Shown one piece after another: positions 5,251 to 63,843 of a stretch of 64,000 nucleotides of DNA (within the stretch, counting starts at the first letter, position 1; every line of letters begins with the position of its first letter). The DNA comes from a virus. The stretch spans positions 1-64,000 of IMG/VR virus record IMGVR_UViG_3300032046_005540. One strand, written 5' to 3'. A program made the translations under genes and the position numbers. The notes under the pieces are model-generated. The model was given only the letters and a program-made list of their open reading frames with translations, was not told the origin of the DNA and searched no databases.

Positions 5251-6240
5251 TTAAGTACCACACGGACAAATTACTCTACCTGTGAAGGTTCCTTTAGCAA
5301 CTGAATTTGCATTTACAAACAACATTCCGATTTCTTCATAACCAACATAAGCAATCAAAGCACGCTTAGGTTCATCATCCGGCATCAAAATCAAGTCAGT
5401 TCTAATTGGAAACACTCCAGTAAATCGAGGCTCGGATAAACAATAAACTGTCATATCAGGAACCAAACGAGAAACTATAATATCAATTCCCCAAATGTTA
5501 GCCATTAAACCAGTTTGCATAATTTCTCTTTGAGTCACTGGATCTACATCATCTCTCTGCCAAGACCTAATATGTGAATAAGAATCCATATTCATTAAGA
5601 ATGCATAAGCAGGAAGGTCATGAACTTGAACCACTGCAGCTAATTCATTTAGAAAATCCTTATTTAAACCTGTAGTACTAGTTGTAATTGGATTGTTAGC
5701 AACGTTAGCTAAAACTGTAGCATTTGCCAATGCTAAAAACTGAGTATCCTCTTCCAATTGAACATGAATACGAATCTTCTCCTGCATACGATCCAAAACA
5801 TTAAACCTTCTCTGTTGAATTTCAGACAACCTAATTCCCTCTGGAGCAAAAATCTCCCAAGTTTTAGGCTCAACATACTCTCCCTCAACGATAAAATCTA
5901 TAACTTCTCCACGTTTTGCAACAGTAGTTGCAAACCCCAAAATGTCTTTGTCATAACGTGCGATTTGTCCTTGAGCGAGTACATCGATCTCAAAAAATCT
6001 ACGACACATTCCTTGATAATCTAACTGCGTTCGGATTGGTATCGCCATTTGAGCTCCTAAAGCCTGCCTTCCAGCTTCTGTTTGAAGCAAATTCCAAATC
6101 TCTTCAGTTTCATCTGCTTCATTATGAAGATTGTAAGGATCAATAGTTTTGTAGTCAGCATCTGCTCTTACTGCAAAACCTCCTCTCGGAGCTTCCTTCC
6201 TAAATCCAGGCGGATACGCACTTGCATTTTTCTTTACCAT
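5251..6240 (-). CDS. Major capsid protein (HK97 fold)
   Basis: 329 aa in the canonical protease-decoration-capsid order. The pattern LGAQMAIPIRTQLDYQG...EG..VEP.TWEI...FNVLDR.Q......EED and GLMANIWGIDIIVSRLVP...G.FPIR.D...YEEIGM resembles, from memory, the capsid family of Bxz1-like large myoviruses. Very strong AGGAGGTG RBS. Confidence 0.88.
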   Translation of the reverse strand: MVKKNASAYPPGFRKEAPRGGFAVRADADYKTIDPYNLHNEADETEEIWNLLQTEAGRQALGAQMAIPIRTQLDYQGMCRRFFEIDVLAQGQIARYDKDILGFATTVAKRGEVIDFIVEGEYVEPKTWEIFAPEGIRLSEIQQRRFNVLDRMQEKIRIHVQLEEDTQFLALANATVLANVANNPITTSTTGLNKDFLNELAAVVQVHDLPAYAFLMNMDSYSHIRSWQRDDVDPVTQREIMQTGLMANIWGIDIIVSRLVPDMTVYCLSEPRFTGVFPIRTDLILMPDDEPKRALIAYVGYEEIGMLFVNANSVAKGTFTGRVICPCGT

Positions 6241-6835
6241 TAAAATTTCACCTCCTAAATAATTTAACGATTAACGATTTAACGATTATCCAAACAAAAT
6301 GAGTCTCAAGGTGTAATTATTACCTACCGAAGGTACCTGAATTACAAATCCAGCAGGCCTGTTTGCACTACCCGAAGTAGAAGCAGAAAGCTTACCACTT
6401 GCGTTAGTCCAGAGTAAATCCATAGGTGTGCTAGCTTCAACCGAAGCTTTCTCATATGCAAGATAAGAAGAATTAACAGTTCCAGCGGCTGCTTCTGCAG
6501 AATGATCAATTTGAAAAGCACAATGACCATGCAAAACAGTAGCTTTCATCGCAGCGGGCGGTTGAGCGAGTTCAGTATCATCATCCATTACAATACCATA
6601 AATCTGCTCCCCATTAACAGTACACAAAATACCATAGGTAGGATCTGTAGGATCCAATTTAAAACACTGCCCAGGAATCCAAGTAAAGCTTGGAGTCCAT
6701 CCCATGATTCCCGAGGAACCTGAAGAAAAAGTCCCAGCTATCTTTAGAGAATCTTCCCAACCAAAATATCCTGCTCTTGTTACTTTAGCCATTAAAATTT
6801 CACCTCCTAAAAACGATTAAACGATTAACGATTTA
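6237..6835 (-). promoter_or_regulatory. Duplicated translation-initiation regions (6237-6287 and 6789-6833): three AATCGTT repeats followed by TTTAGGAGGTGAAATTTTAATGG
   Basis: 23-nt identity across RBS and start codon; three heptamer copies precede each. Confidence 0.7.
6286..6792 (-). CDS. Head decoration/cement protein (putative)
   Basis: 168 aa, small-residue rich, between scaffold and MCP; DLLWTNASGKL...AGFVIQVP matches the end of beta-tulip decoration proteins. Confidence 0.65.
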   Translation of the reverse strand: MAKVTRAGYFGWEDSLKIAGTFSSGSSGIMGWTPSFTWIPGQCFKLDPTDPTYGILCTVNGEQIYGIVMDDDTELAQPPAAMKATVLHGHCAFQIDHSAEAAAGTVNSSYLAYEKASVEASTPMDLLWTNASGKLSASTSGSANRPAGFVIQVPSVGNNYTLRLILFG

Positions 6836-9800
6836 CCTTTTGTAGTAATGAACCTTAGGGGCATATTCAATTCCTTTCTTTCTCAAAGTGTTTTCAATAG
6901 TAGTAAATCTACCTGAAAAATCAGGAACACGATTAGTACTTTCTAAATCTGCAGTAGCTTTATGAAGTTGAGGAACTACACTTGCTTTCTTCCTAATTCT
7001 TTCTTTTACATCTGCAGTTAATTCTTCTTCTGTAGTTTCCTCTTCTACTATTGCAGGTCTTTCAAATCTTGACTTTTCTTGAACTGGAGGAATTACCTCT
7101 CCTTCCTCAGTTAAACCTATATCTGCTTTCTTTGAAAGTTTTGCAGCACTTTCCACATCGTCTTTCATATTATCAAGTTTTAATTGATCTGGATGCTTTC
7201 CTTCTTTTTCATCTCTAACAGATTCTGTTGCATCATATACGATTCCACTATTAACATTTTCAGCTTCTGGAATTTGATAAGCTTTTAAAGCTTTTGCATT
7301 TACTACTGGAAGAACATTTAAAGTATCCTCAACTGCTTTAAAACCCCTATCATCAAGTTCCGAATACTCTTGAGCTTTCTCAGTAACGGAATCTGTATCA
7401 AAAGGAATTACTCCAGCTGCGGCTGCTTTTCGTGCTAAATCAACAGCCCTCTTTGCAAGAGCTTCAGCAATTCGATCCTCTTCTAAAGCTTTAACTTTCT
7501 TTCTTAGATTTTCATTTTCTTTCACAATTGCAGCTACCTTTGCTTTTGTAAGTTCTCCCGCATATCCAGAATCGCCAAAAGCTTCTGTAAAATACTTCTT
7601 ATCTCCAGCAACTTTAGGAGCATCAACAGCTTCAACTCCTGGACGGGCTTTTCCAGAATCCTTTTCTCCTTCATGAGAATCATATAATCCTTTAGGAATG
7701 GTTGTAATTTCTCTTCCTTCAAAAGGAGCAGCTGTTTTTCTCTTTTTTGAAGCATATGAAGGAGTATATTTCTCAGAAACAGATTCTTCTACAGCCTCAG
7801 AGACTCCTAATCGTTCCGCAACTCTATCAATAAGAGATTCCAACGCTCCTATAACTACTTCTTGTTGTGGAGTTACTTCCGCATATCCTTTTTCATAATT
7901 ATAATCCTCTCGAAGATCATCTAATATCTGAGCAAGTTTATTTTGATCATTCCAAGCACCCCGTACAAGACGATCCCACTCTCCTGCAGATTTCTTAGCT
8001 GTTTTTCTTACTACTTTTACCCAACTTCCAAACATTTCCCTACGAACATCATCAAGACCTTTGCTTGAAACAGTTTTCAATATCAATAGTTTGTAAGAAT
8101 TTGAACAGAACTTTTTAAAATTCTCTTCTGTTAAATTATCATTACCAGCAACATCTGCAAAAGTAGATTTCATTGCAAAATTACTTCCTTCTTTTGTTAC
8201 TAACCAATAGGCATCTCCTCTTTTTTCTCTATTAATAAACAACTTTGCAACCACTCCAGTTAACAAATCTACTCTTCCTTCTGGAGTATCAAACTCGGTT
8301 CTCTTTTCTTTTCCTTTCATCTTTTCATACTCTTGGTTAAATCCCTTCCAAGTAGATAACTCTTTAGCAACCGGAGGTTCTCCATAATCTCCAGGATCTC
8401 TTGCTCCAGTAGGCGGGAACGAAGTAGCCTCTTTATCAAACATTTGACGTAACTGATCTGATGCTTTCTTAATACTATTAGCACCAGCGATAACATCTTC
8501 TATTTTTTTCGCCACATTCTCACCTCCTTCGCCTTTTTCTTTAAATTTTTCTTCTTCTTTAGGTTTCTCAAACTCTTTTTCTTTTCCAAATTCTTTTTCT
8601 TTTGGTTTCTCAACCTTCTCCAGATTTTTTATAGTATCTGTAATAATTTTCTCAGCCTCTTCTACTGCTTCCTGAGCATCTTCAATAACAGGTTTTGCCT
8701 CTCTAAGAGCTTCCTCTACTGCAAATTGTAAATGTCTTCCATATCTTTTATTACCTTTCAAAACACTTGCAAGAGGTTTTTCTGCTTCCCCTTCAAGTTT
8801 CTCTTCAACCTTTTCAAGATCTTCATGAACCTCTTTTAAATCTGTAATAGCGTTTTGTAAAACCTCCTTTACATTCTCGGGTTTCTTTTCTTCAACCTTT
8901 TCACCTGGTTTAAGCTCAGGCTTTTTTTCTCCTTCAGGTTTTTCTTCTTTTCTCTCAAAACCTTCTTCCTTTGGTTTTTCTCCCGGTTCTCTTTCTCCTC
9001 CTTTTTCTTCTCTTTTTCTCTCCATATATTCTTTTAATCCTGGAGGAAGTTCTCCTGTTAATTTCTTAAGAGTAGCTTCTACTTGAAGTTTCAACTCTTG
9101 AACTGCTTTCTTTGTATCTCTTACTACTTTAGCAGCAGAAACTTCATCTTTAAGAAAAATAACGCCAGGAGAACGTGATTCTTTCTCCTTCTCAACCATT
9201 TTATCTCCTTTCTCTGACATTCCTTTCCAACTTTTTATTTCTGTTTTTTCAATATCAATTCCTTCATCTTTTATATCTTCTGCAGTCGAAGGAAGACCAT
9301 CGTAAACTGCTGTTTTTGCTGTTACCAGCTCGGCATCAAATTCTTCCAAACGCTTCTTAACACGATCAATAAGAGATAATAACCCTCCTATACGTATTTC
9401 TTCTTCTGGAAAATTCTTTCCCAAATCTTTTATATATTCATAAGTTTCTTGAAGATCTTTTAATATTTGAGTAAGGTCACCAAAATTATTCCAAGCACCT
9501 TTTATAAGGTTTAACCATTCTCCAAAAGATTTTGAACCTAACATTCCAGCTGTTTTCATAAACATATTAGCTAACACAAACTCTTTCATATCTTCTACAG
9601 TTGGAGGAAGACTCCTGTAAACGGCTTTCTTTTTTTCAACCATACCTTTTTCTCCTTCTTCTATATTTTTTATTTCTTTTTTTTCTAATTTATATTCTCT
9701 TGGAACAACTTTATATTTAGTTTGAAGCATTTTTACCCAATCGTTAATAACACGAAGTTTCTTTTCATCGCCTCCTGCCTGTTCATACATATTATCAACT

Positions 9801-11167
9801 AATTCTTGCGGTTGCTTCCCTTGCTGTGAAACAAGAATATCAAAAGCAAGCACATCAGTTAAATCTAAACCAGTATTTTTATATTCCATAGCACCAAATT
9901 TCATAATATCTTCTTTTAAAGCAAATTTTAATCCTAATAAAATCTCAGGATTTACCAGTTGAACAAAAGTAGTACCATCCATAGGAACAAATTTAGCGCC
10001 TAATTTTTCTAACTTTGATCTATCTTCAGTTTCAACATAAACTTTTTTTATTTGTTTAGAGGTCAATGCCTCCTTAGCAATTTCTCCGTCTCTTAAATAT
10101 CCATATTTTTCTAAATCAGACCAATCTTTAAAATCTTTATTATATTCTTTTGCTTTTTTTGCAGTTGAAGAATTAAAATAATCATTTGTTACATCAACAT
10201 GCACTTCAACTTCCTCTCCTTCAGCAACTTTCACTAGAGGCAGTAATTCTTGAAATCCTTGTTTTAACATAGAGGCAATTTTTTCTAATTTATATCCTCT
10301 AATATATGCTGGATTTGCTACTACACTTAATTCAAAAAATGAGAGGCCATAATTAATTTCAAAAACTGTAGCAGTTACCATTCTACTTGTTTTTCCGGAA
10401 AGGACTTCTCTTTGATCTGCTTCTCGTTTAAGAACCCATTTTATCCATTCTGGTCTAAGCTTTCCTTCTTTCAGTAAATTTCTAATTTGGTTAGTGGGAA
10501 CTAAAACAGTAGAACCTTTAGAATAAGCAATATGTCCACAATAATCTAATTCTGTTCTAGCCCTATTGCCACAAATACTACAATCGCTAAACTCGATATT
10601 TGTCCCCATACTACAGCCAAGCGAAACATCGGAATCAACTTGGCGGGCAATCGAAGGAGATAATTTTGCGTCTACAGCCATCAACACCTCAATGCTCCCG
10701 TCTTCCTCAGGCTTTCTATTTGCTAAAACTTCCATTCTCTCTTCAGAAGTTAAATCACTCCATTCTCTATTTCCATATTTACTTAAATCAAATCTATTTA
10801 AATAAGCACCAAGTAAAGTTCCAATACTTTTAGTAACGTCATCACTTTGATGCTCCACAAAAGCTTTTTTGTTTATGAAAGAAGTATATCCATATCCTGA
10901 GCGAGAATCTAAAAATTGATCATATGGAAAGCCGTCGTAGTTACAATTTGGGCCATCCACGCACAAATTCCCAATTGCTCTAAAGCGAATGTACCGCATA
11001 TCATTATTATAAGGAGAAATTTTTTGTATTTGAGCTGCGTATTTATGAACAACTTCAGGGAAAACAGACCCCATACTGCAATTCTGACAATTGCTCTTAT
11101 TGCAATTAATACATGAACCCATTTTTCCTGGAGAAGAAAAATATTTAGTTAAAATAACTTTTTTCAT
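6833..11167 (-). CDS. Prohead (capsid maturation) protease fused to a long scaffold region
   Basis: N-terminal FVEH...SIG...SMGT..EFSDCSICGN...CGHI...FEIN.GLSFFELSVVANPA fits an HK97/herpes-assemblin-type protease with a Zn-ribbon insert; about 1100 aa of E/K-rich coiled coil follow; lies just upstream of the capsid genes. Confidence 0.8.
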   Translation of the reverse strand: MKKVILTKYFSSPGKMGSCINCNKSNCQNCSMGSVFPEVVHKYAAQIQKISPYNNDMRYIRFRAIGNLCVDGPNCNYDGFPYDQFLDSRSGYGYTSFINKKAFVEHQSDDVTKSIGTLLGAYLNRFDLSKYGNREWSDLTSEERMEVLANRKPEEDGSIEVLMAVDAKLSPSIARQVDSDVSLGCSMGTNIEFSDCSICGNRARTELDYCGHIAYSKGSTVLVPTNQIRNLLKEGKLRPEWIKWVLKREADQREVLSGKTSRMVTATVFEINYGLSFFELSVVANPAYIRGYKLEKIASMLKQGFQELLPLVKVAEGEEVEVHVDVTNDYFNSSTAKKAKEYNKDFKDWSDLEKYGYLRDGEIAKEALTSKQIKKVYVETEDRSKLEKLGAKFVPMDGTTFVQLVNPEILLGLKFALKEDIMKFGAMEYKNTGLDLTDVLAFDILVSQQGKQPQELVDNMYEQAGGDEKKLRVINDWVKMLQTKYKVVPREYKLEKKEIKNIEEGEKGMVEKKKAVYRSLPPTVEDMKEFVLANMFMKTAGMLGSKSFGEWLNLIKGAWNNFGDLTQILKDLQETYEYIKDLGKNFPEEEIRIGGLLSLIDRVKKRLEEFDAELVTAKTAVYDGLPSTAEDIKDEGIDIEKTEIKSWKGMSEKGDKMVEKEKESRSPGVIFLKDEVSAAKVVRDTKKAVQELKLQVEATLKKLTGELPPGLKEYMERKREEKGGEREPGEKPKEEGFERKEEKPEGEKKPELKPGEKVEEKKPENVKEVLQNAITDLKEVHEDLEKVEEKLEGEAEKPLASVLKGNKRYGRHLQFAVEEALREAKPVIEDAQEAVEEAEKIITDTIKNLEKVEKPKEKEFGKEKEFEKPKEEEKFKEKGEGGENVAKKIEDVIAGANSIKKASDQLRQMFDKEATSFPPTGARDPGDYGEPPVAKELSTWKGFNQEYEKMKGKEKRTEFDTPEGRVDLLTGVVAKLFINREKRGDAYWLVTKEGSNFAMKSTFADVAGNDNLTEENFKKFCSNSYKLLILKTVSSKGLDDVRREMFGSWVKVVRKTAKKSAGEWDRLVRGAWNDQNKLAQILDDLREDYNYEKGYAEVTPQQEVVIGALESLIDRVAERLGVSEAVEESVSEKYTPSYASKKRKTAAPFEGREITTIPKGLYDSHEGEKDSGKARPGVEAVDAPKVAGDKKYFTEAFGDSGYAGELTKAKVAAIVKENENLRKKVKALEEDRIAEALAKRAVDLARKAAAAGVIPFDTDSVTEKAQEYSELDDRGFKAVEDTLNVLPVVNAKALKAYQIPEAENVNSGIVYDATESVRDEKEGKHPDQLKLDNMKDDVESAAKLSKKADIGLTEEGEVIPPVQEKSRFERPAIVEEETTEEELTADVKERIRKKASVVPQLHKATADLESTNRVPDFSGRFTTIENTLRKKGIEYAPKVHYYKR

Positions 11168-12147
11168 ATCAAATTTCCTAATTTATTTTTTACTTCTTCT
11201 GTATTTTTTAAAATATCACTTTCCCAAAATCTTAAAAGAATAAAATTACTAGTTTTAGCTAATTTTTCTTTAATAAAGTCTTTTTGTTTTGTTTCTTTTT
11301 GATGTTTATTTAATTTTTGAAATTTTTTAGGATTACCATGCCAGTAATCTCCATCTACCTCTATTAAAATATTAGTATTTAGAATGTGAAAGTCATAAAG
11401 GCAATTTTTAATTCTAAACTGATGTTCAAAAGGAATGTTTAGTTCATTTAGAATTTCTTTCATTTTTAATTCAGGTCCAGTGTTTTTATAAAGGCCAAGG
11501 TGAGTTTGAAGTTGAAATATAGTACATTCACTTTGATTCTTAAAAACTCGTAAATTTTCAACCCTATTATCATTTTCTATTCCATTTATATGATAAACTA
11601 CTACAGTTGGATCTAAAAATTTACCTTCAAAGCCTTTCACTTCAATTAAAAACTCAGAATTAGGATCATGCTCTTTTAAATAATTCTCCATTACTAAACG
11701 ATGTTCCAAAATACGATCACTACCACTACATATATAAGCAAATGGATGAGTCTTTTTTTCTAAAAAAATAAGAATACGCCCATGCCCATCTTTAATTTTG
11801 CCATTTTTATAATTTGGAGCTCTTTTACCTGTTCTACCAAATATAGGATGGTTTTCACCGCACAGTTCCCCTCTTATAACAAAATTATTTTGTTTTCCAA
11901 GTTGTTTACAAGACTCAGTAGCAGCTGCTTCCTTATTATTTCTTGTTTTGCCCCATTTGTTAACTATTTTACAAATAACCCCTTGACTACAATTCAACTT
12001 TCTGGCTAATGTATAAGTACTAATTTCTTCCACTCTATATTGTCTTTCAATTTCTTTTTCTTGTAAATCTAAAAATTTACGTATACCAGTATTTGCCCTT
12101 CTTTCGTGTTTTCCTTTAAACATTTTATATATTCTCTCCCAAATCAA
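11164..12147 (-). CDS. Homing endonuclease with HNH-like and Vsr/DUF559-like domains (true start probably 12123)
   Basis: EHRLVME...VYHINGIENDNRVENL (HNH-type) followed by TGPELKMK...LIEVDGDYWHGNP...LLRFWESDI. Confidence 0.75.
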   Translation of the reverse strand: MIWERIYKMFKGKHERRANTGIRKFLDLQEKEIERQYRVEEISTYTLARKLNCSQGVICKIVNKWGKTRNNKEAAATESCKQLGKQNNFVIRGELCGENHPIFGRTGKRAPNYKNGKIKDGHGRILIFLEKKTHPFAYICSGSDRILEHRLVMENYLKEHDPNSEFLIEVKGFEGKFLDPTVVVYHINGIENDNRVENLRVFKNQSECTIFQLQTHLGLYKNTGPELKMKEILNELNIPFEHQFRIKNCLYDFHILNTNILIEVDGDYWHGNPKKFQKLNKHQKETKQKDFIKEKLAKTSNFILLRFWESDILKNTEEVKNKLGNLI

Positions 12148-13018
12148 CTTTCTCCTCCAACGGTACTTCTTTTGTCATACCTCCTTCAACAGGAACAGCA
12201 CTTTCAGTGGGCCCAATTAATTCTATATCACTTATAAAATCAGATCCAAAATCCTTTCCGTCCACAGTCATCCAAAATGCCAACTCTGTTCCAACCTTAA
12301 CTACTTTAGCTTCCTTTTTTGAAGAAGTTAAAATTTTATCTCCAACAGCTAATTTTTTAGGAGTTTTAGTAGAGGATTCTGTTCCTAAATGAACATGTAA
12401 AAAATTACCACTAATTTCCCAAATCCCTTTATCTTCATCAACAACTTCAAGTCCATCACCAGATTCAGCATACTCATCTCTTATTAATCTTTTATGTATT
12501 TTTTGAAGAGCTTCTTCTAAAGAAGACGCTGAAGTTATATAAGTTTGTAATCTTTCTCCATAATCAGAATCTTCCAAAATTCCTACATATTTCTTATTAA
12601 TTACAGCTAATTTTTTAGGAGTTTTAGTAGAAGCAATTGCAATAAGATATTCTTCAATTTGTTCTTTCAAGAATTTAGATGGTTCATCGTCTCTTTTAGA
12701 AAGAAACCTCCGTAAAAATTTTAATATTTCTTTATTTACACCATCTCTTATTCCTCCATAGAAATCTTCAGCTTGTTGTGCAGCCTCTTGACCTAAAGAA
12801 GAAGCAATATCAGCTATCAATTTTTTCTCTTCAGAAAATAAAAGAGCTCTCTTCCTCATACTTAATTTTGAAGTTGGTAAAACCGAAGGGTCGTGATCTT
12901 CGGATTTCTTTACATCTGATTCTGGAGGAAAAATAAGTTTTTGAAAATCTTTTGATAAAGGTTTTTTTGTAAAATCCCGCGTATCCCGTTCATATTCAGT
13001 AAAATCTTTTTTTGGCAT
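12125..13018 (-). CDS. Motif-punctuated small polyprotein-like ORF (KLSMRKRA plus two STKTPKKLAV)
   Basis: Motifs seen in the translation; first gene of the head operon; AGGAG RBS. Confidence 0.6.
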   Translation of the reverse strand: MPKKDFTEYERDTRDFTKKPLSKDFQKLIFPPESDVKKSEDHDPSVLPTSKLSMRKRALLFSEEKKLIADIASSLGQEAAQQAEDFYGGIRDGVNKEILKFLRRFLSKRDDEPSKFLKEQIEEYLIAIASTKTPKKLAVINKKYVGILEDSDYGERLQTYITSASSLEEALQKIHKRLIRDEYAESGDGLEVVDEDKGIWEISGNFLHVHLGTESSTKTPKKLAVGDKILTSSKKEAKVVKVGTELAFWMTVDGKDFGSDFISDIELIGPTESAVPVEGGMTKEVPLEEKVDLGENI

Positions 13019-13183: not shown

Positions 13184-13696
13184 TTACCTTCCACAGCACT
13201 TTTTATATTTTTTATTTGAACCACAAAGACAAGGCTCGTTTCTGCCAATTTTTTCTATCACTTTAATAGGCTTTTGCATTCGGTCAAAGAAAAGAATACC
13301 ATTCATGTGGTCAACTTCGTGCTGAATTAAGACAGGCAGTATACCATCTGTTTTAACATCTACTATGAATCTACCCATACTTTCGTCCTGAACGTCTATT
13401 GATCCGTGCCTCAAAGTATTTTTAAATATCTTCGGAAAACTCAGGCAACCTTCTCCCTTAAATACAAATTCATTTTGTTTTCCTAGAATAACTGGATTTA
13501 ACATTTTAAAAACCTTATTCCCCAATTTAATTAAAGCTACTCTTTTAGGAATTCCAATTTGAATAGCACTCAAAGCTACTTCTTTTTGCTCATCTAAATA
13601 TTGCTCAAGCTTCTTCCAAATTTCTTGAGCCTCTTCAAAAGTTGCCACGCTACTTACTTGTCTTAAAACTTTTTCATCTGTAATTATCTGTTCCAT
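13184..13696 (-). CDS. def: Peptide deformylase with C-terminal SEC-C motif
   Basis: ALSAIQIG, EGCLSFP and QHEVDHMNG motifs; KIGRNEPCLCGSNKKYKKCC. Confidence 0.93.
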   Translation of the reverse strand: MEQIITDEKVLRQVSSVATFEEAQEIWKKLEQYLDEQKEVALSAIQIGIPKRVALIKLGNKVFKMLNPVILGKQNEFVFKGEGCLSFPKIFKNTLRHGSIDVQDESMGRFIVDVKTDGILPVLIQHEVDHMNGILFFDRMQKPIKVIEKIGRNEPCLCGSNKKYKKCCGR

Positions 13697-14522: not shown

Positions 14523-15329
14523 CTACTTCCAATTTATCATCTTTTTTTGATTTGGTAAACATTTTACTAAACCCCCTGAAACTAACTTTTCTTTTATTTC
14601 TTTCCTTAATTGGTAAATTCTAGCAACTTTAACATTAAAAAGACTTGCTACTTCTTTTGGCGACAATTGTTTATAATCAGAATTTTTGAACCCTACTAAA
14701 TAAAGGACAATATTAAGTTCTTTCGGTGTGAGTAGTTTTTTCAATTCTAAAATTAAATATTCCTCATTTGTTTTCTCAACTAAGACATCTTCTGGAGTAT
14801 AATAATCAATAATCCCAAATTTTCGTTCAAAATCAGGAATCTCACTTAATGCTTCAAGGGACAAAAATTCAAATTGCCTCTGTTCTAATTCATCTCTTTC
14901 TTTTCTTTCTAACTTGGTTGGATCCTGAATCAACTTCCAAAATGCTCTTTTTTTAGATTCAGGTAAAGGAATATTTGAAGGTTTCTTATTTAATGCTATT
15001 AAAATTCTTCGCTTTACATAAGGAAATGCAAAAGTTGTAAATCTTGTATGCGGTTCATAATAAGGATCAAATCCCTCCAAAGCATCACATAATCCAAAAT
15101 ATCCTTCCTGAATTAAATCTTCTAAAGATAATCCCATTCCTTCATATTTTTTAGCAATGCTTAATACAATGCGAAGAGAAGCAAATACTAATTTTTTAAA
15201 ACATTCATCTATAAGAAAAGGATCTACTGATCCTTGAATTGTAATAACACAATCTGATTCTTCCTCTTTACTTAATTTAGGAATCAAAACATTGGTTTTT
15301 AAAAATAACTCAAACGTTTTATCATTCAC
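14523..15329 (-). CDS. RNA polymerase sigma-70 family factor
   Basis: LRIVLSIAKKYEGMGLSLEDLIQEGYFGL.DA...FDP...RFTTFA.PY (region 2); LTPKE...LSPKEVASLFNVKVARIYQL (region 4). Confidence 0.9.
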   Translation of the reverse strand: MNDKTFELFLKTNVLIPKLSKEEESDCVITIQGSVDPFLIDECFKKLVFASLRIVLSIAKKYEGMGLSLEDLIQEGYFGLCDALEGFDPYYEPHTRFTTFAFPYVKRRILIALNKKPSNIPLPESKKRAFWKLIQDPTKLERKERDELEQRQFEFLSLEALSEIPDFERKFGIIDYYTPEDVLVEKTNEEYLILELKKLLTPKELNIVLYLVGFKNSDYKQLSPKEVASLFNVKVARIYQLRKEIKEKLVSGGLVKCLPNQKKMINWK

Positions 15330-18300
15330 GACTTCCTTCTTTTCTCATACTTAATCTATTTGCTATAATACCTCTACTAATTACTTCTTTAGCTTGTTCT
15401 ATTTCTTCTTTAGAAACATCTGTTTTCTTATCACTTACTATATCCCAGATTTCATCTTCAGTGTATTTACTTAACAAAGTAGAATATTCTGGATATAAAA
15501 TATCTGGAATAGTTTCCTTCGAAGGTTCATCCAATTCTAATTCTTCATCTTCAATAGTTATCTTAGAAGGAAGCCAATCTGGAAGTTTCGAATCTGGTTT
15601 TACCTTTGTTTTTGGTTTTACTTTTTGTTTTACTTTTACTTTTGGTTTTATACTTTCTTTTGTTTTTTGTCGCATTTCTTCAACAACCATTCCAAATTCT
15701 TCACTTTTTTCATTATCAAATATTTTATATGATCTCTTCCATCCTTCATAGCGCTCCATAGGTTCAATTAAGGTCACCTTTTCAGATTTTAAATCTTTTA
15801 AAACTTGATTATACATTTCTTTTCCTCTAGATATAATACCCCAAGAAGCGTAATCCATTCCATCACGTAATTCTCCTGAAGGATCAGTATTTACTAAATT
15901 TTCTGTAAAATTTGAAAATTTATCTACAAAATTTTTCCATTCTGGTTCTGGAACTACTTTTTCAATTTTATTTGAATCTTTTCCTATTTGATCTATATAA
16001 TTCCAAAATTCAATATCAGACATAACTGCTTCTTTCCGCATTCCTAACTTAGCTGTTTTAAAAGCCTCAAAAAACTGAGCCAAAGCTGGTTTTATCCATT
16101 CATTAACTAAATTATTTACTATAAACCTAGTAATTGGTTTTCCTTTACTTTTAAATCCTTCTTTATTTAAAGTCTCTGCTATTTGTTCGTGAGTATTATC
16201 TTCAATCTTTAAATCAAATATTCTTAATATCATATCTTCAAGTTCTGGATTTTTTGTATGAATATAACTTTGAAGATTTTCTCGGGCACTATTTATAGTC
16301 ATTTGAACTAAAGGATGAGATTTATCTTCTAAAGTTTCTCCTAAAGTTATATCTTCTCCAGTTGGTTCTTCTGTAGATACTTCTTTTTGTTTTTCTTCAT
16401 ATTCTTTTTTTCTAGTCCCTCTTCTTAAAAAATTATAAACAGCGGTTGTTAAAAACGTTGAAAAAGCTCCTTTTGAAGAATCATATTGAGGAATTACTCT
16501 ATTTAACATCTCAACTTTAATATCGGACAAGGTATCTTGAAAATCATCACTTCCAGGAGTTAACCCCCACTTTATAAGAGAAGAAGCTATTAAACTTTCA
16601 TTTTCTTCAATAACTTTAGCAATAGCATCCTTATCTCCTTGTTGTGCTTTTTGAATAGTTTCAGGAGCGCTTTGAGCAGTTTTTCTCATACTTAATCTAT
16701 TAGCAATATCTTTTCGACTACCTTTAATTTGTTTTTTAAGAAGTCTTGAAAAAAGAAATTCTAGCTCAACTACATCTGCGTAAGTTAATACAAAACCTCT
16801 TTCATGATGTGCCCACTTTGCTATAACGTCATGGATTTGAGTAATATCTCCTCCATAATGTTCTAACCAGTGTTGAGGACCTCCTTCATATTCTATCCAT
16901 TCAATAAAAGCATTCTTAACCTCATCCCATTGAGCAGTTTTTCTCATACTTAATCTATTTGCTACTATACCTCTACTTATTACTTCTTTAGCTTGTTCTA
17001 TTTCTTCTTCAGAAACATCTGTTTTTTTACCAGAGACGATATCCCAGATTTCGTCCGGAGAGTATTTGTTGAGAAAAGCTGCATAAGGAACTGGAATAGT
17101 TTCTTTTGAGAGATCCCCTTTTTCAGGGTGAATTTCTTCTTCTTCTTCTTCAACTTCTTCTTCTTCAACTTCTTCTATTTCAAGTTCTTCTTCTTCTTCT
17201 TTGTAAAATCCTCGATTTTTTAATCTAACTAAAGCCTCTGGAGGAGTATTTGGATTTTCCAAAAGAGCATAAAGAATTGAGTTACTTTGACTTCTTGCTA
17301 ATTCTGCCAAAGCTTTTGGAGGAGTATTTGGATTTTCTGCTAAAGCTTCACGTATAGGCATATCTCTTCTATTTCTTAATAATTCAACTAAAATCTCTGG
17401 AGGAGTATTTAGATTTCCTGCTAACTCAAAAAGAACAGTCCAATCTTTATCTTTCGCAAGTTCAACTAAAACTTCTATAGGAGTTGAAGGATTTTTTGCA
17501 ATTTGTCTCCTAACATTATAAAGGTGATTTTTTGATAAGTCAACTAAAACTTCTGAAGGAGTATTTGGATTTTCTGCTAAATTTACAGCTTTTTCAATAT
17601 TTTCCCAATATTTTTTATCTTCTTTTTCTTTTTTAATTCTTTCTTCTCTTTGTTCTTTTGTCTCTTTTTCTTCTTCTTTTTTTCTTTTTTCTTCTTTTAA
17701 TTTTTTAACTTCCTCATAAAAAGCATTCCACTTTTCTCTAGTCCATACTTTAGGGTTCTGTCCTTTCTCAATCAATTGATCCATTAACTTACCACCAACA
17801 TCTTCGCGTAGTTTTTTCTCAAATTCTTTTCTTTTTTCTTTCATTCTTTTATACTTTTGTTCTATATATTCCCCGCGATCTTGTAATTTTGCTAAAGTTT
17901 CAGGAGGAGTTGAAGGATTTTCCATAAGTGCATGAAGAACATTCCAATTTCTTTTTGATAATTCAATTAATGCTAATTCTGCTAAAGCTTTTGGAGGAGT
18001 ATTTGGATTTTCTGCTAAAGCTAGGCGAACATCTAAATTTTTATCTTCAACTAACTTAGTTAAAGCCTCTGGAGGAGTATTTGGATTTCCTGCTAAAGCT
18101 TCACGTATATTCCAGTCACTATTATTAACTAATTCTGCTAAAGCTTTTGGAGGAGTATTTGGATTTTCTGCAATTTTTAATTTTTCTGCTTGTCTTTTTT
18201 TATATTCTTCCCAACCGTTTGCAGTTTTTCTCATACTTAATCTATTTGCTACTATACCTCTACTTATTACTTCTTTAGCTTGTTCTATTTCTTCTTCAGA

Positions 18301-18879
18301 AACATCTGTTTTTTTACCAGAGACGATATCCCAGATTTCGTCCGGAGAGTATTTGTTGAGAAAAGCTGCATAAGGAACTGGAATAGTTTCTTTTGAGAGA
18401 TCCCCTTTTTCAGGGTGAATTTCTTTCTTTTTTCCAACTTCTTCAGTTACCTCAGTTTCTTCTCCCTCAAACTTTTCTTTTTCTTTTCCGGGGCCTCGCA
18501 ACGTCTCCAAAGGAACTTTCTTTATTTGATACTTTGGATTATCAGGATCTCGACAAACCTTAATTAAACTCTCTAAAAGCTCCCGACCCCGAGGTTTCAA
18601 CTCTATTTCCGTTGATATAAAAGCTAAATACTCCCCTATAATTTGTATAAAATTAGAAGTGTTATCTTCATTTGCTTCTAAAATAACATCCGACAAAGTT
18701 TCATCTCCAAAAATGCTATACAAATTTCCAGCAAGGTCTTCAACTTCATCAGGATCTAAAGAGCCAGCTTGTTGTAGATCTTTTACTATCATAAGAACAT
18801 CTGTAATCTTTTTATAATTAATAGGACCTTTTGGAAACCCTTCAATTCCTAATTTCTTCCTCATATTCAATTTCTTCAT
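15322..18879 (-). CDS. Polyprotein B (1185 aa): LSMRKxA-delimited modules including LRV repeats, a sigma-factor-like domain and a DUF4240-like domain
   Basis: Six linker copies (KLNMRKKL, RLSMRKTA x3, KLGMRKEA, RLSMRKEG) separate unrelated domains; lies directly downstream of the portal. Confidence 0.7.
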   Translation of the reverse strand: MKKLNMRKKLGIEGFPKGPINYKKITDVLMIVKDLQQAGSLDPDEVEDLAGNLYSIFGDETLSDVILEANEDNTSNFIQIIGEYLAFISTEIELKPRGRELLESLIKVCRDPDNPKYQIKKVPLETLRGPGKEKEKFEGEETEVTEEVGKKKEIHPEKGDLSKETIPVPYAAFLNKYSPDEIWDIVSGKKTDVSEEEIEQAKEVISRGIVANRLSMRKTANGWEEYKKRQAEKLKIAENPNTPPKALAELVNNSDWNIREALAGNPNTPPEALTKLVEDKNLDVRLALAENPNTPPKALAELALIELSKRNWNVLHALMENPSTPPETLAKLQDRGEYIEQKYKRMKEKRKEFEKKLREDVGGKLMDQLIEKGQNPKVWTREKWNAFYEEVKKLKEEKRKKEEEKETKEQREERIKKEKEDKKYWENIEKAVNLAENPNTPSEVLVDLSKNHLYNVRRQIAKNPSTPIEVLVELAKDKDWTVLFELAGNLNTPPEILVELLRNRRDMPIREALAENPNTPPKALAELARSQSNSILYALLENPNTPPEALVRLKNRGFYKEEEEELEIEEVEEEEVEEEEEEIHPEKGDLSKETIPVPYAAFLNKYSPDEIWDIVSGKKTDVSEEEIEQAKEVISRGIVANRLSMRKTAQWDEVKNAFIEWIEYEGGPQHWLEHYGGDITQIHDVIAKWAHHERGFVLTYADVVELEFLFSRLLKKQIKGSRKDIANRLSMRKTAQSAPETIQKAQQGDKDAIAKVIEENESLIASSLIKWGLTPGSDDFQDTLSDIKVEMLNRVIPQYDSSKGAFSTFLTTAVYNFLRRGTRKKEYEEKQKEVSTEEPTGEDITLGETLEDKSHPLVQMTINSARENLQSYIHTKNPELEDMILRIFDLKIEDNTHEQIAETLNKEGFKSKGKPITRFIVNNLVNEWIKPALAQFFEAFKTAKLGMRKEAVMSDIEFWNYIDQIGKDSNKIEKVVPEPEWKNFVDKFSNFTENLVNTDPSGELRDGMDYASWGIISRGKEMYNQVLKDLKSEKVTLIEPMERYEGWKRSYKIFDNEKSEEFGMVVEEMRQKTKESIKPKVKVKQKVKPKTKVKPDSKLPDWLPSKITIEDEELELDEPSKETIPDILYPEYSTLLSKYTEDEIWDIVSDKKTDVSKEEIEQAKEVISRGIIANRLSMRKEGSRE
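16934..18425. repeat. Exact 205-bp direct repeat (16934-17138 = 18221-18425); diverged copies at ~15339-15470 and ~55962-56092
   Basis: Encodes EIHPEKGDLSKETIPVPYAAFLNKYSPDEIWDIVSGKKTDVSEEEIEQAKEVISRGIVANRLSMRKTA; offset 1287 bp is in frame. Confidence 0.9.
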
Positions 18880-18995: not shown

Positions 18996-21900
18996 TTAAT
19001 TTTCAGTATCACGGTTCTTCAACATCTCCTTGTTAGATTTTTTTAAACGTTTTACTTCTGCCTCAAGGCCTCCTTCTAATTCTTCCTGCATTTCTTTAGA
19101 TTTTTCTCTTAATACTTCAGGGCCGCCTCCAGGTTTTCCTTCTCCTTCTGCAACTCCTTTTCCAATAGGAGCTCTCGGAGCAGACGGAGGAAGAGGTCCT
19201 CCAAGTAGTGTTGGTCCTCCACCACCTAAAGGCTTCACTTGTTGTGTTGGAGGAAGCTCTAATCCTTCTGATATTAGTTTTTCTCTAAATTCTTTATCTT
19301 TCTTTGCATCTTTAAATTGTTGATTTCTTTGTTCTTGTTTTTCGACTTCAATCTGCCTTTGTTCTAAATCTCCGTCCAACTTCAACACTCTATAATATGT
19401 AGCATCACTAATCTTTCTAACTCCTGGAAACATCTTATCAAAAGACATTAAAAATTGTCTGTATTGTGCATCTGAGGTCAAAGATAGTAAATCCCACTTC
19501 ATTTTCGGATAAATATATTTTGGTCTTACTGCTAAACCATTTTCAGCGTCTTCTTGTGCTTTTTTTCTAATAAATTCTTTAAACTCAAAATTATCTTGTA
19601 AATCTCTTAAAGTTTTTTGAGCAAATCTTTGTTCCATAAAATTCTTCATTGCTTTTGCATCACCATAAACTTTGCCTTTATAATTCTTACCTACAACTGT
19701 TTTATCTGTTTGATAAAAACCACACAATCTCGATACTACTTCAAACAAACCTTTATGCACAAAATTTTCTAACCTCAACTGAAAATGTAAATATCGTTGC
19801 CTCAAAACTTCTAAATTCATGTATGCAGTAGCATACGTTGCAGTCCCTCCAGAAAGCAGTGCTTCACTTATTCCTAAGCCTAAGAATTTAAGTTTTCGTA
19901 TTCTATCATGCTCAGGAGTAAGGTTTAAAATTTTACCGGAGGCTCCATAGAATTGAATATCCAGGCCATAATGGTAAAAGATGGTCTGGCCCTGAACTGC
20001 TATCTCACCACCACGTCTTGTTATTATAATTCCTGTAGGAACTGATACACACCAAATTTTACCTTTATAAAATTCTCTCTGTATTTTTGTGCAAGTTAAT
20101 TCATTACCATCAACTATTTTTTTATTTGGATCTTTTTGAATTTCGATTTTTCTATTTTTAATTTGATTCCAAATTAAAACATGATTTATTCCCAATTTAG
20201 TTGCTAAAGTTCTTACGTTTCCATTCACTTTTTCTAACAAAGATTCTAAATCTATCTTATCCCAATCAATTTGTTTCTTTTTTCTATAAATTTCAACTTC
20301 ACTTAAATCAATAGGAGTTTTTTCATTTTCATTAGGAATAAGAGGAAACTTTTTTTCAACTGTTTCAGAAACACTTAACATATAAAGATCATAATAAGGA
20401 GTACCATCTTCTCTATTATAACATCTCTTTCCTTCCTTTAATAAATAAGAATGAGAAGATCGAGTTCTTAAAAAAGTACCATAACCTAACTTCAAAGCAA
20501 TTTCCTGCATATCATCTATAAGTTGTTTTGAAACTGAAGCTCCTTCCCATAATATACTATTTTTTTGTTTTATACAAGTACCATCACCTTGTAACCAAGC
20601 TTTTAAAAGTAAATCAAGATGTTTCTTATCAGCATTTAACATCCAGCGAGGAACGTGTTTATTAATTTTTTCACTACAGGTCTCTTTTAAATATCTTCCT
20701 AATTTTACATTATTAATCACAAAATGATCTTCATTTTTGCGCACATTCCAAGGTAATCTTTTTGATAAATTTTCTAATATTTGAACGCCTTCTACTTTTG
20801 ATTGTGTTATATTAACACTATAAGGCTCTGTATGACTATGGTAACATAAACAACCTTCTGCTAACCACCAACCAACAAATTCAAACCAAGCTTCAGAATT
20901 TACTTGCTCTCCAGCAATCTCTAACATCTTTGGGGGTTTTTCACCTTCATAGTTATCCACACAAGCTCTAAATCTATCAGTTGCCCTTACATTTTCAGCA
21001 TGAACTATCTGCCATTCTTCATCTCTATTTACTAACATTCTATGATTTGGAGTTACTTTAATATCAACATGCTTCGTTTTAAAATGAATCATATCCCCTT
21101 CATAATCTTGGATCGTAATAATAGAAGGGTTATAATATTCAAGCGAATTATTTTCCTTATTAAAACTAGCGACCTTATGATTATAAGTTAACTCATCATA
21201 TTTAACCCAACCTTTATCTGTTAAACATTCAGTTTGATCATCATAACAGAAATTAGGATCCACCTCTCTGGCACTAAAAAGTTCCTTCACATCTTCCATT
21301 TCCTCTTGGCCGGGGATCCAGCCACTGGCTGGATCGCCAAGTTTAACCACTGTTATAGGAATCACTTGCCTAGTAGCAATAGAAAAGTTTGCCATATTTA
21401 ATCTATCTTCATAAATCAACATTTTCAAAATACGTTTGATAATTGACTTACCTAAATTTTCATATGGAGCTTTGTTGTGAGCAATAAAAAAAGTATTATT
21501 TGGATCTAAAGGAATTTCTTGACCTAATCTAACAAACTTAATAATTTCTGGAGAAAGTTGATTATATAAAAACTTAGGTTGGCCAGAGCTTACAATTCTT
21601 TTTAATGCTTCATCTGGTTGAAGTTTAATTAGAGGTTTTTGATTCAGCCAAGTAGACTCAACAGTAACATAGTCTGGGTTTAGGACCGCGAACTGATCCC
21701 ACATAAAATCTACTTCATTCCAAGCACCAAATAAAAATACATTTCCAATTCGCCAATATTCTAAACCTAAATCAAACAAAAGTTGATCTCCATGAATCCT
21801 ATCCCACATTTCTTCAAAATGAGCTTGGATTCCAGGATCGCCACAAGTTGAAAATCCATATCCAGCTAAGGGAAATTCTGTGTGAAGACGAATTGCGTTA

Positions 21901-22196
21901 CCAACTATAGGATCTGTATCATCAAAAAATCTATATAAACCATTTAGAGTTCTTAGATCGGTAGGAATAGAAAGGGTAGTAAATGTATAACGTGGATCAT
22001 TGAAAGTAGGAGCAGTCCTACTTATATCTGCGGCTTGTGTCCTTATTCTTGCTTTGAAATCTTGAGATTTATCAAAAGAAGCTCCTCGAATTGGTTTGAA
22101 TTCTGGAACTTTTATAAGACCTTGATTTTGATTTATATTTTTACTTTTACCATATCTGTCAGTATTAACAATTCGACCTCCAATAAGATAACCCAT
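18996..22196 (-). CDS. Portal protein with intein
   Basis: YRFF...DPIVGNAI.LHTEFPL...EYW.IGNVF...LNPDY...G.SII.R....L.YED.L..A..IA.R...PI.VVKLG; located between terminase and capsid genes. Confidence 0.82.
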   Translation of the reverse strand: MGYLIGGRIVNTDRYGKSKNINQNQGLIKVPEFKPIRGASFDKSQDFKARIRTQAADISRTAPTFNDPRYTFTTLSIPTDLRTLNGLYRFFDDTDPIVGNAIRLHTEFPLAGYGFSTCGDPGIQAHFEEMWDRIHGDQLLFDLGLEYWRIGNVFLFGAWNEVDFMWDQFAVLNPDYVTVESTWLNQKPLIKLQPDEALKRIVSSGQPKFLYNQLSPEIIKFVRLGQEIPLDPNNTFFIAHNKAPYENLGKSIIKRILKMLIYEDRLNMANFSIATRQVIPITVVKLGDPASGWIPGQEEMEDVKELFSAREVDPNFCYDDQTECLTDKGWVKYDELTYNHKVASFNKENNSLEYYNPSIITIQDYEGDMIHFKTKHVDIKVTPNHRMLVNRDEEWQIVHAENVRATDRFRACVDNYEGEKPPKMLEIAGEQVNSEAWFEFVGWWLAEGCLCYHSHTEPYSVNITQSKVEGVQILENLSKRLPWNVRKNEDHFVINNVKLGRYLKETCSEKINKHVPRWMLNADKKHLDLLLKAWLQGDGTCIKQKNSILWEGASVSKQLIDDMQEIALKLGYGTFLRTRSSHSYLLKEGKRCYNREDGTPYYDLYMLSVSETVEKKFPLIPNENEKTPIDLSEVEIYRKKKQIDWDKIDLESLLEKVNGNVRTLATKLGINHVLIWNQIKNRKIEIQKDPNKKIVDGNELTCTKIQREFYKGKIWCVSVPTGIIITRRGGEIAVQGQTIFYHYGLDIQFYGASGKILNLTPEHDRIRKLKFLGLGISEALLSGGTATYATAYMNLEVLRQRYLHFQLRLENFVHKGLFEVVSRLCGFYQTDKTVVGKNYKGKVYGDAKAMKNFMEQRFAQKTLRDLQDNFEFKEFIRKKAQEDAENGLAVRPKYIYPKMKWDLLSLTSDAQYRQFLMSFDKMFPGVRKISDATYYRVLKLDGDLEQRQIEVEKQEQRNQQFKDAKKDKEFREKLISEGLELPPTQQVKPLGGGGPTLLGGPLPPSAPRAPIGKGVAEGEGKPGGGPEVLREKSKEMQEELEGGLEAEVKRLKKSNKEMLKNRDTEN
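19986..21248 (-). mobile_element. Intein (421 aa, LAGLIDADG-type) in portal, ending in Gln
   Basis: DPNF|CYDDQTECLTDKGW...VTPNHRM...GWWLAEG...AWLQGDG...IWCVSVPTGIIITRRGGEIAVQGQ|TIFYH. Confidence 0.88.
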
Positions 22197-59353: not shown

Positions 59354-60248
59354 TTGCAAACTCCTCCAATTTATAAATAAGAACATCTCTCAAAAATTCA
59401 TCATAAAAATCAAAGTACCAAATACAAAAACATTCAACTCCAACACTTTTATATTCATTTATTATTCTTTCGTGGTGATCCCACCAAAGTTCTTTCGTAA
59501 TAATAGGATCATGAAAATATCCTCCTAAAACCTCAACAACTTTTTTAGTTTTCTTAAAAGGTTCAACAATAAAATCTGGATTTCTATTTTTATATTTACC
59601 ATTTTTAATAGGAATCCAAAATTTTCCGTTACCTACGTATTTTACATTCTTAGGAACTACCTTCATTACTTCTTGTTCAAGTTTACTAGGACCTATACTA
59701 GCTTTTTCTTTACCTTTTTTCATTTTTCTTAACTCTTCTTCAGAGGGTTTTCTACCTCTTAAAGCTTTACTAATTTTCTCTTTTGTATTATCAAAACAAG
59801 GATGTCCTTTTAAAGCATTACTTATTTTTCTTTTATGTTCTTCAGAAAGAGGCCCTCTTTTTTTACCTTTATTTGATTTACTTATTTTCTGTTTTGTTTC
59901 TTCAGAACGGTATGTTCCATAAAGAGGATTTTTTTCTCCTTTTTTTGATTCCCCTATTTTTCTTTTTGTTTCTTCAGAACGAGGTATTCCTTTTTTAGAT
60001 TCACTAATTCTTTTAACACCTTCACTAATTTCTTTTGTTAAATTTTTATTCCAAGCTTTTCTCCCTTTAAGAGACTCGCTAATAGTTCTTAACTTATATC
60101 CATTTCTTTTAATAATATTTCTAATAGTCACATCACTACAATTCCATTTTTTAGCTAAAACTATACTATTTAATTTCTCTTCAGAAAAATATTCCTTACA
60201 AATTTGTAATTCCTGCTCTTTTGTAAATATTTCCAAAGTTATCACCAA
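59343..60248 (-). CDS. Free-standing homing endonuclease: HTH + NUMOD3 array + PD-(D/E)xK nuclease
   Basis: [18 protein letters not shown] repeats; NPDF...[10 protein letters not shown]. Confidence 0.75.
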
Positions 60249-63489: not shown

Positions 63490-63843
63490 TTATTTTTCTC
63501 CTTTTTCAAATTCTTCTGGGTAATTTTCTTGATATTCTTGCCACAATTTTTGCATTTCTTTAAAAAGACTGTTATAGTGTTTTCTCTTTATAGAAGCAAA
63601 CCTATAATTTATCCAACGATCAAAAACTTCTTGTAAAGTTGTTTTTCCTTTTACAAGATTCTTTATAGCAGTTTGAAACCATCCTTCACTTTCCCAGTCT
63701 TCTCCCAAAAGAGTTACTACTTCCCCATAATCATCTTCAATATCATCTTTATCATATTTAAAGGCTCTTTTCCTCATACTTAATCTTTGACTCGATGTTT
63801 TTCTAAATCTTTTATTTTGATCTTGCGGTATAATTAAAATCAT
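63490..63843 (-). CDS. Single-module protein with N-terminal RFRKTS/RLSMRKRA linker motif
   Basis: Motif at about aa 12-28; AGGAGG RBS. Confidence 0.6.
   Translation of the reverse strand: MILIIPQDQNKRFRKTSSQRLSMRKRAFKYDKDDIEDDYGEVVTLLGEDWESEGWFQTAIKNLVKGKTTLQEVFDRWINYRFASIKRKHYNSLFKEMQKLWQEYQENYPEEFEKGEK

Follow-up and report, generated by a model that had tools for sequence, protein, structure and literature searches.

In phage T4, the capsid targeting sequence (CTS) directs diverse internal proteins into the scaffolding core (PMC3012670), and these varied cargo proteins share the conserved address, are packaged together with the DNA and are injected (PMC3012670). The herpesvirus UL26 product combines a protease with a scaffold and cleaves after Ala at two places, namely a release site and a maturation site close to the C-terminus (PMC4498786). 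In the giant phage SPN3US, 14 cuts have been mapped; 13 of them take off N-terminal propeptides 20-254 residues long, and a C-terminal piece is lost from the protease alone (PMC10052503). Here we compare these systems with a viral locus in IMG/VR record IMGVR_UViG_3300032046_005540, of which positions 1 to 64,000 were analysed (this 64,000-nucleotide stretch is called the window). Directly downstream of a portal gene, open reading frame (ORF) 15322-18879 encodes a polyprotein with six copies of a short basic motif, L-x-M-R-K, which are located between its modules and near both of its ends. Based on comparative results only, meaning sequence comparison plus predicted structures, we propose that the motif is probably both a mark of head cargo and a cut site of the phage head protease.

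The motif begins at amino acids (aa) 4, 214, 643, 729, 945 and 1176 of the ORF 15322-18879 product. A preliminary description of this DNA had reported that the protein starts MKKLNMRKKLG, ends RLSMRKEGSRE and carries four internal copies, all of which are indeed read in the 1185-aa frame. The C-terminal copy has the peptide form ANRLSMRKEGSRE, and the last internal copy retains L-x-M-[RK] in all orthologues, with a variable fifth residue. When counted over the whole 168-kb genome (coordinates given here are otherwise positions in the window), the strict motif is present 18 times, compared to 0.47 copies expected from residue shuffles, which yielded a maximum of 3 in 300. All 18 copies fall within five ORFs, comprising two polyproteins, one tail-region polyprotein and two small proteins. 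The motif logo reads [KR]-L-[SN]-M-R-K-x-[AS]-[QN], and a position matrix reveals extra, weaker L-x-[LF]-R-K copies in a 3263-aa polyprotein, as well as an N-terminal copy, MLYSLSFRKTSQ, in a 518-aa ORF of the tail region. One of the small proteins, encoded by the single-module ORF 63490-63843, carries the motif at aa 21, near the N-terminus as previously described, with a weaker tandem copy (FRKTSS) before it.

The 518-aa ORF (genome positions 150473-152029 on the (-) strand, equivalent to L005:4474-6030) resides among tail and virion genes and begins with the MLYSLSFRKTSQ copy. Further copies lie at aa 370 and at aa 497, the latter 17 residues from the end, which makes the product of this ORF a third protein bearing the motif close to both termini.

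The preliminary description had made its proposal of a sorting tag depend on conservation of the terminal copies in homologues. Orthologues were gathered by protein searches and from JGI and IMG/VR metagenome loci, giving 11 with a known N-terminus and 11 with a known C-terminus. The N-terminal copy is conserved in 8 of the 11, and the C-terminal copy likewise in 8 of 11. Among those that keep it, the N-terminal copy reads MKKLNMRKKLG, MKNKLGMRKTAQ, MKNKLSMRKKAQ, MKKNKLSMRKKAQ, MKNYKLSMRKKAD or MMNYKLSMRKKEG, whereas the C-terminal copy reads LSMRKEGSRE, LSMRKKGK, LSMKKKSNEKK or a degenerate LSMRVKKL, each ending at the stop codon. Losses at the N-terminus are seen in L008/P0095, L011 and P0131 (through a 14-residue deletion in P0131), and at the C-terminus in L007/P0130, L009/P0132 and P0131. 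At least one end copy is retained by all nine orthologues for which both ends are known, and an N-terminal copy is found also in two other polyprotein families. We conclude that the end copies are not chance occurrences. First scans of viral contigs with the whole polyprotein and with alignment A2 gave no matches, and a scan with the R module (a ~55-aa segment discussed below) recovered only a homologue of the giant polyprotein. Among cultured phages, the only match to the polyprotein was to leucine-rich repeat variant (LRV) sequence in a Moorella phage.

The N-terminal copy is translated, because a conserved ribosome binding site, GATTGGAG (GGAG), lies at a fixed distance of 11 nucleotides (nt) upstream of the first ATG in six loci, indicating that the Met of the motif is not the start. 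This fixed spacing rules out a start at the motif's own Met, as assumed in the public call P0132 for the L009 orthologue. The public gene call P0002 for ORF 15322-18879 is only 867 aa long, beginning at internal Met 319; the reading frame itself extends over 1185 aa, and the orthologues are called from the first ATG. Furthermore, the Leu, Arg and Lys codons vary among motif copies, and the Ser of the motif, which is AGT in all 15 Ser-bearing copies of this genome, is TCA, TCG or TCT in L008-L010. The codons vary but the peptide does not, which shows selection at the peptide level. The same variation eliminated the motif core as a candidate internal translation start or Shine-Dalgarno sequence.

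The 241-aa orthologue L010/P0133 consists of MMNYKLSMRKKEG, a single sigma-like module and LSMKKKSNEKK at the stop codon, with the motif at residues 6 and 231. This protein has one module only, and therefore there are no modules for the motif to separate.

A similar arrangement is evident in a distant clade (loci L015, L016, L019, L020 and L024) whose protease is ~50% identical. The portal-adjacent gene of this clade again carries motif copies near both ends, and the cargo is sigma-like in L015, L016 and L019 (hidden Markov model (HMM) E 1e-7 to 4e-15). The portal-adjacent proteins of L020 and L024 match neither a Pfam family nor the sigma-like HMM. The L020 protein has two tandem copies at its N-terminus and three at its C-terminus (ending LSLRKKIKLSLRKKIGLSLRKKN at the stop codon), and further tandem copies are present in L018 ORF 10202-10738. 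In the 722-aa L020 protein (L020:3826-5994), the three end copies are tandem 8-residue units, and the first 20 codons share their DNA with the 3' end of the portal gene, which is read in a different frame.

Seven distant-clade loci also encode, immediately upstream of the protease, a ~145-aa protein that terminates in SELP[AT]SKISL.MKK plus 3-6 residues, and this C-terminal copy of the motif is its only one. Across loci L012-L025, the motif lies in the last 16 residues of 7 of 326 ORFs, compared to 1.2 expected, with the seven forming orthologous groups rather than independent events. The last ~50 residues of the ~145-aa proteins (DYERDL...LPTSK plus the motif) are colinear with the first 57 residues of ORF 12125-13018 and its orthologues (hmmsearch E ~1e-6 in a four-sequence search). 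This alignment places the motif-bearing segment at the N-terminus in the window clade and at the C-terminus in the distant clade. Relative to the small pre-protease ORFs of L015-L020 and L024, ORF 12125-13018 shows an apparent rearrangement or circular permutation; a possible beta-rich module (GD.I..TG...) may also switch sides, with the alignment covering the motif segment. A motif that merely separates modules is hard to square with a bracketed single-module orthologue, tandem ends, proteins with a C-terminal copy only and a segment that switches ends.

The link to head maturation comes from a shorter core, hydrophobic-x-K-x-A, which is found in the major capsid protein (GFRKEAP and MRKQAS) and at the junction that follows the protease domain (YKLEKIAS), and which recurs where maturation cuts are expected. 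The N-terminus of the capsid protein conforms to M[RVK]K[QN]AS[SA]YPPG[FY].K.AP in both clades, the protease domain closes with a near-invariant RGYKLEK[IV]A[SQA] (14 homologues), and the distant-clade protease-scaffold protein begins M(A)LRKYAS. A motif-like FIRKKAQ in the portal protein was set aside as a chance match, given that it is not conserved past close relatives. The 1444-aa protease-scaffold protein matches phrog_18299 (E=1e-10) over aa 160-219, and the protease alignment includes invariant His106 and Ser186 columns. Searches with the protease found no Pfam family at E up to 0.01 and no solved structure by sequence. The AlphaFold model of the sigma-like segment places the linkers on both sides of this module at a predicted local distance difference test (pLDDT) score below 50, between domains at ~80, which is what an accessible site would look like.

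We assign a probability of roughly one half to the following explanation: a single element both is recognised by the head protease and tethers the protein to the protease-scaffold core, and the copies at the two ends represent ancestral processing sites that surround a sigma-like cargo. The gene would encode a head-cargo pro-protein made beside the portal, in which the phage's own head-maturation protease, putatively the N-terminal domain of the 1444-aa protein, would recognise the 8-residue element [KR]-L-[SN]-M-R-K-x-[A/S/G]. Because this protease belongs to the assembly core, a motif lodged in its substrate groove would keep the chain tethered to the core during procapsid formation, and any one copy may suffice. 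Activation of the protease would then lead to cutting at every copy, releasing M1-R, LRV-R, M3, the sigma-like protein and DUF4240-R (module names as in the table below), and shortening the chain by ~8-10 residues at the N-terminus and by 3-5 at the C-terminus.

In this mechanism the end copies would not be leftovers, but rather the sites at which an ancestral pro-protein, of the form 'site - sigma-like module - site', was processed. That form is the simplest and most widespread form of the gene, and its minimal version appears to persist in L010/P0133 and in the distant clade. Comparison of the orthologues suggests that extra cargo cassettes were inserted at the two sites, leaving the original copies at the far ends. 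The products would presumably be packaged into the head and injected into the next host, and if the ends were trimmed only inside the head, then the sigma-like protein might be kept inactive in the producing cell. Sporulation factors pro-sigma-E and pro-sigma-K of Bacillus likewise carry a removable pro-sequence that delays their activity. Unlike these factors, the phage protein has sites at both ends, would be processed by a phage head protease, and would have its activity deferred to the next host.

The proposal of the preliminary description that the motif is a sorting tag, and not only a cut site, is thus favored by the conservation of the terminal copies, although one of its arguments fails. 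It had noted that the terminal copies lack Ala, and this is correct here, where position +6 is Leu in the N-terminal copy and Gly in the C-terminal copy. As a general rule it does not hold, and it gives no support to a tag, because four other N-terminal copies read MRK[KT]A[QD] with Ala at +6. Leu at this position is limited to the lineage of the window, L006 and L007. The C-terminal codons GAA GGA AGT CGT GAA TGA contain the GTG start of the downstream sigma-70-type gene, as well as a purine run, GAAAAGAAGGAA, before this GTG. The C-terminal Gly codon falls inside the Shine-Dalgarno sequence of this gene. In L007, a stop right at the Met of what used to be the linker ends the polyprotein (ending GKM), and the same 12-mer survives there as non-coding DNA. 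Its retention as a ribosome site for the sigma gene indicates that the C-terminal Gly codon is under a second constraint. Internal R-linked copies can be followed by Gly as well, at aa 354 of P0004 and aa 586 of P0094. The further suggestion that L-x-M-R-K is a docking element and the trailing x-A a scissile bond is compatible with the data, with the capsid protein and the protease junction having only the hydrophobic-x-K-x-A core.

A number of observations weigh against our explanation. The full L-x-M-R-K motif has no match in the capsid, portal or protease-scaffold proteins, with the capsid and protease-scaffold proteins sharing only the short K-x-A core, and the scaffold contains 8 core copies compared to 3.7 expected (P ~0.03), in a setting where scaffold and capsid proteins are Lys-rich. 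The AlphaFold model of the protease domain is poor (pLDDT 50.6), and the family is assigned from one PHROG match. Bacillus phage G, which has the nearest cultured relative of the capsid protein (40% identical), lacks the motif. The orthologues are few and phylogenetically related, some of them lack one or the other end copy, meaning that these copies have been lost repeatedly and are dispensable, and the starts of the distant-clade genes are uncertain because they overlap the portal gene.

Comparison with the described systems gives a mixture of shared and distinct features. As with the T4 proteins IPI-III and Alt, which carry a CTS processed by gp21, there is a short N-terminal leader that ends in the putative head-protease consensus (here aa 4-11, after MKK). 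In T4 the same consensus is present in capsid and core proteins, whereas here only the hydrophobic-x-K-x-A core is shared. In addition, the motif is basic (M-R-K-x-A) where that of T4 is L/I-x-E, the leader is nearly the motif alone, further copies sit between modules, at the very C-terminus and in tandem, several modules make up the cargo, and the protease is fused to the scaffold. This putative fusion resembles UL26, as do a candidate site right after the protease domain, a near-C-terminal site and a small residue (Ala) at the proposed cut. However, the herpesvirus cut frees a capsid-binding tail of 25-37 residues (PMC4498786), compared to 3-6 variable residues here. SPN3US gp245 and the ejection proteins of phiKZ and 201phi2-1 provide another parallel, in that a single short motif marks the cuts in many head-internal proteins, and the propeptides have been proposed to direct these proteins to the prohead (PMC10052503). 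A polyprotein with repeated linkers, or C-terminal sites on cargo, has not been described in those giant phages, and C-terminal cargo sites would be unusual against the SPN3US pattern. Finally, the polyprotein is reminiscent of polyvalent proteins (Iyer et al. 2017, PMC5512222), which are multi-domain, mosaic and rapidly shuffled, are encoded next to portal and head genes, and have been predicted to undergo injection. It differs from them in that the signature domains MuF and zincin-like peptidase are not found here, and the word 'linker' is never used in the main text of PMC5512222. A Pfam scan of the polyprotein at E up to 1 revealed neither these two nor other polyvalent signature domains.

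If the motif does act as both address and cut site, then it would be a very compact packaging signal of ~8 residues that is usable at either end or between modules. It would explain the free swapping of cargo cassettes in this phage clade, and would offer an easy means of directing foreign proteins into capsids, much like the T4 targeting sequence. The phage may deliver a ready-made sigma-like factor that is held inactive by end peptides until the head protease trims them. The logic is known from the T4 CTS and gp21 processing; what would be new, judging from the sequences, is a basic motif that is also located between modules, at the C-terminus and in tandem. We regard as doubtful a stronger version, in which the motif is a portable capsid-address tag for either end or between modules that is read by the groove of the scaffold-fused protease, the modules it flanks are loaded and then released, and the conserved cargo is a pro-sigma factor that is activated by the protease and injected to reprogram the host RNA polymerase.

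The alternative that survives best, which we consider a possible but rather unlikely explanation, is that the motif is a cut site only. The cargo would reach the head by other means, such as the R module, the M1 module or portal binding, and the end copies would simply trim the ends or have arrived with the cassettes. The R module (~55 aa, ..KYTxDEIWDIxxGKKTDVxxEEIEQAKEVISRGIVAN) was not mentioned in the preliminary description. It is located immediately before three of the six motif copies, including the C-terminal one, and in long forms the C-terminal copy always accompanies an R module. Its family has 12 matches among 1.84 billion representative proteins, with no Pfam family and no Atlas lead. 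The gene is retained in several orthologues that have lost end copies, the stop codon at the Met in L007 destroyed the C-terminal copy while the next 12-mer survived as a ribosome site, and removal of short N-terminal propeptides is routine in SPN3US and T4 (PMC10052503). However, R is absent from L009, L010 and the distant clade, and therefore cannot be a general address. Nor would a neutral remnant preserve L, M, R and K when both clades show synonymous and codon-family changes, and the tandem ends (L020, ORF 63490-63843 and L018 ORF 10202-10738) and the single-module proteins with only a C-terminal copy would be without obvious use. Separately, L007:277-2085 has a CxxCxGxG zinc-ribbon-like module in place of the final R module and motif, and a 14-residue R stub between two linkers (aa 283-306) that resembles an intramodule recombination scar.

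We also considered that the motif might be an uncleaved short linear docking motif, through which the intact chain binds a head or host partner multivalently. Tandem and terminal copies would suit avidity, and the linkers are predicted to be exposed. This explanation seems improbable, however, because the core is found again in the capsid N-arm and where the protease domain ends, both of which are positions of maturation cuts in known systems (PMC4498786), and chains of up to 3263 aa made of unrelated modules would be easier to use if the modules were released.

Constraint at the nucleotide level, either as a recombination handle for cassette exchange or as overlapping translation signals, is in our view very improbable. 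The modules of orthologues differ exactly at the linkers, the LRV module lies between the copies of an exact 205-nt repeat whose end falls in a linker, and the codons of the C-terminal tail double as the Shine-Dalgarno sequence of the sigma gene. Nevertheless, the peptide is kept where the Leu, Arg, Lys and Ser codons differ among copies and between clades, and the ribosome-site overlap accounts only for residues that follow the Lys of the C-terminal copy. Cleavage by a host protease, as when Prp removes the L27-like leader from capsid and scaffold proteins of staphylococcal phage 80alpha, is the least credible candidate and was rejected, for despite short leaders on head proteins in both cases and a loose likeness between KLN[LM]RKKA and the L27 motif MLxx(D/N)LQ(F/L)F'A(S/H)KK (PMC9405229), residues P1-P3 are basic here and aromatic in L27 (PMC9405229), the phage encodes a head protease itself, and its genome has no match to the Prp family PF04327. 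We therefore retain the dual role of the motif, as tether and as cut site, as our preferred explanation.

The modules of the polyprotein are LRV, sigma-like and DUF4240-like units plus three unknown ones, and their previously described order (helical, LRV, ~80-aa, sigma-like, DUF4240-like) stands, with weak support for the sigma-like and DUF4240-like assignments. The nine N[PL][NS]TP repeats of the LRV module form blocks of four and five and score 106.9 bits against PF01816, compared to a Pfam gathering cut-off of 21.6. The sigma-like module falls below the Pfam cut-off for Sigma70_r2 (E=0.015; 15.5 bits versus 24). Its AlphaFold model comprises two helical domains (pLDDT ~80), for which the listed Foldseek matches in the PDB are all sigma factors or sigma-containing RNA polymerase complexes, at weak E values of 0.01-0.3. 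The DUF4240-like module has a weak Pfam match (E=0.011) and a BLASTP match (E=3e-6) to the DUF4240-annotated N-terminus of orthologue P0005.

Features of the polyprotein gene and of the surrounding head module, in window coordinates
Feature	Position	Strand	Remarks
Head-cargo polyprotein gene	15322..18879	(-)	1185-aa open frame; directly downstream of portal gene
N-terminal motif copy LNMRKKLG (aa 4-11), behind 3-residue leader MKK	18847..18870	(-)	
Module M1 (aa 12-155)	18415..18846	(-)	no family match
R module copy 1 (55 aa)	18244..18408	(-)	
Internal motif copy 1, LSMRKTAN	18217..18240	(-)	
LRV module, 4 + 5 NPNTP repeats flanking a charged spacer	17131..18216	(-)	Pfam LRV E=1.6e-31
R module copy 2	16957..17121	(-)	peptide identical to copy 1
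Internal motif copy 2, LSMRKTAQ	16930..16953	(-)	
Module M3 (78 aa)	16696..16929	(-)	no family match
Internal motif copy 3, LSMRKTAQ	16672..16695	(-)	pLDDT <50 in model
Sigma-like module (208 aa)	16048..16671	(-)	conserved gene core across window-clade orthologues (alignment A2/A3)
Internal motif copy 4, LGMRKEAV	16024..16047	(-)	
DUF4240-like module and Lys-rich spacer	15532..16023	(-)	weak support
R module copy 3	15358..15531	(-)	
C-terminal motif copy and tail, LSMRKEGSRE	15325..15354	(-)	tail codons hold Shine-Dalgarno and GTG start of next gene
Portal gene, apparently intein-containing	18996..22196	(-)	phrog_16240 E=6e-57; directly upstream of polyprotein
Sigma-70-type factor gene, start overlapping polyprotein stop	14523..15329	(-)	phrog_351 E=1e-24; Sigma70_r2 E=8e-11
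Motif LSMRKRAL, aa 52 of ORF 12125-13018	12842..12865	(-)	closes ~57-aa leader; C-terminal in distant clade
YKLEKIAS junction after protease domain of protease-scaffold ORF 6833-11167	10271..10294	(-)	near-invariant; phrog_18299 E=1e-10; 14 homologues aligned
GFRKEAP near N-terminus of major capsid protein (ORF 5251-6240)	6187..6207	(-)	phrog_2522 E=9e-54
Motif LSMRKRAF at aa 21 of single-module ORF 63490-63843	63760..63783	(-)	

The gene order of the head module is portal, polyprotein, sigma-70-type factor (14523-15329, whose GTG start overlaps the polyprotein stop), homing endonucleases with a peptide deformylase, ORF 12125-13018, the 1444-aa protease-scaffold protein, a 168-aa ORF and the major capsid protein. 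The succession from portal to polyprotein to sigma factor is kept in L006, L008, L009 and L011. The deformylase gene (13184-13696, (-) strand) resides inside the head-morphogenesis module, and its position is kept in both phage clades (L006-L009, L015, L016, L019, L020, L022 and L024). Many head and cargo proteins begin with or carry the Met-Arg-Lys signature, and a connection between the deformylase and N-terminal processing is possible.

Several HNH or homing endonuclease genes are dispersed in the head module. The large terminase subunit (60242-63478, (-) strand) contains an intein with a LAGLIDADG-type endonuclease, and the portal gene appears to be interrupted by an intein likewise. ORF 63490-63843 (-) and protein P0098 begin with a common leader, M.[LF][IV]IPQ..N.R, which is followed by a motif copy and then by different cargo (an unknown module in the former and an R-like module in the latter). 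This leader may represent a second, longer type.

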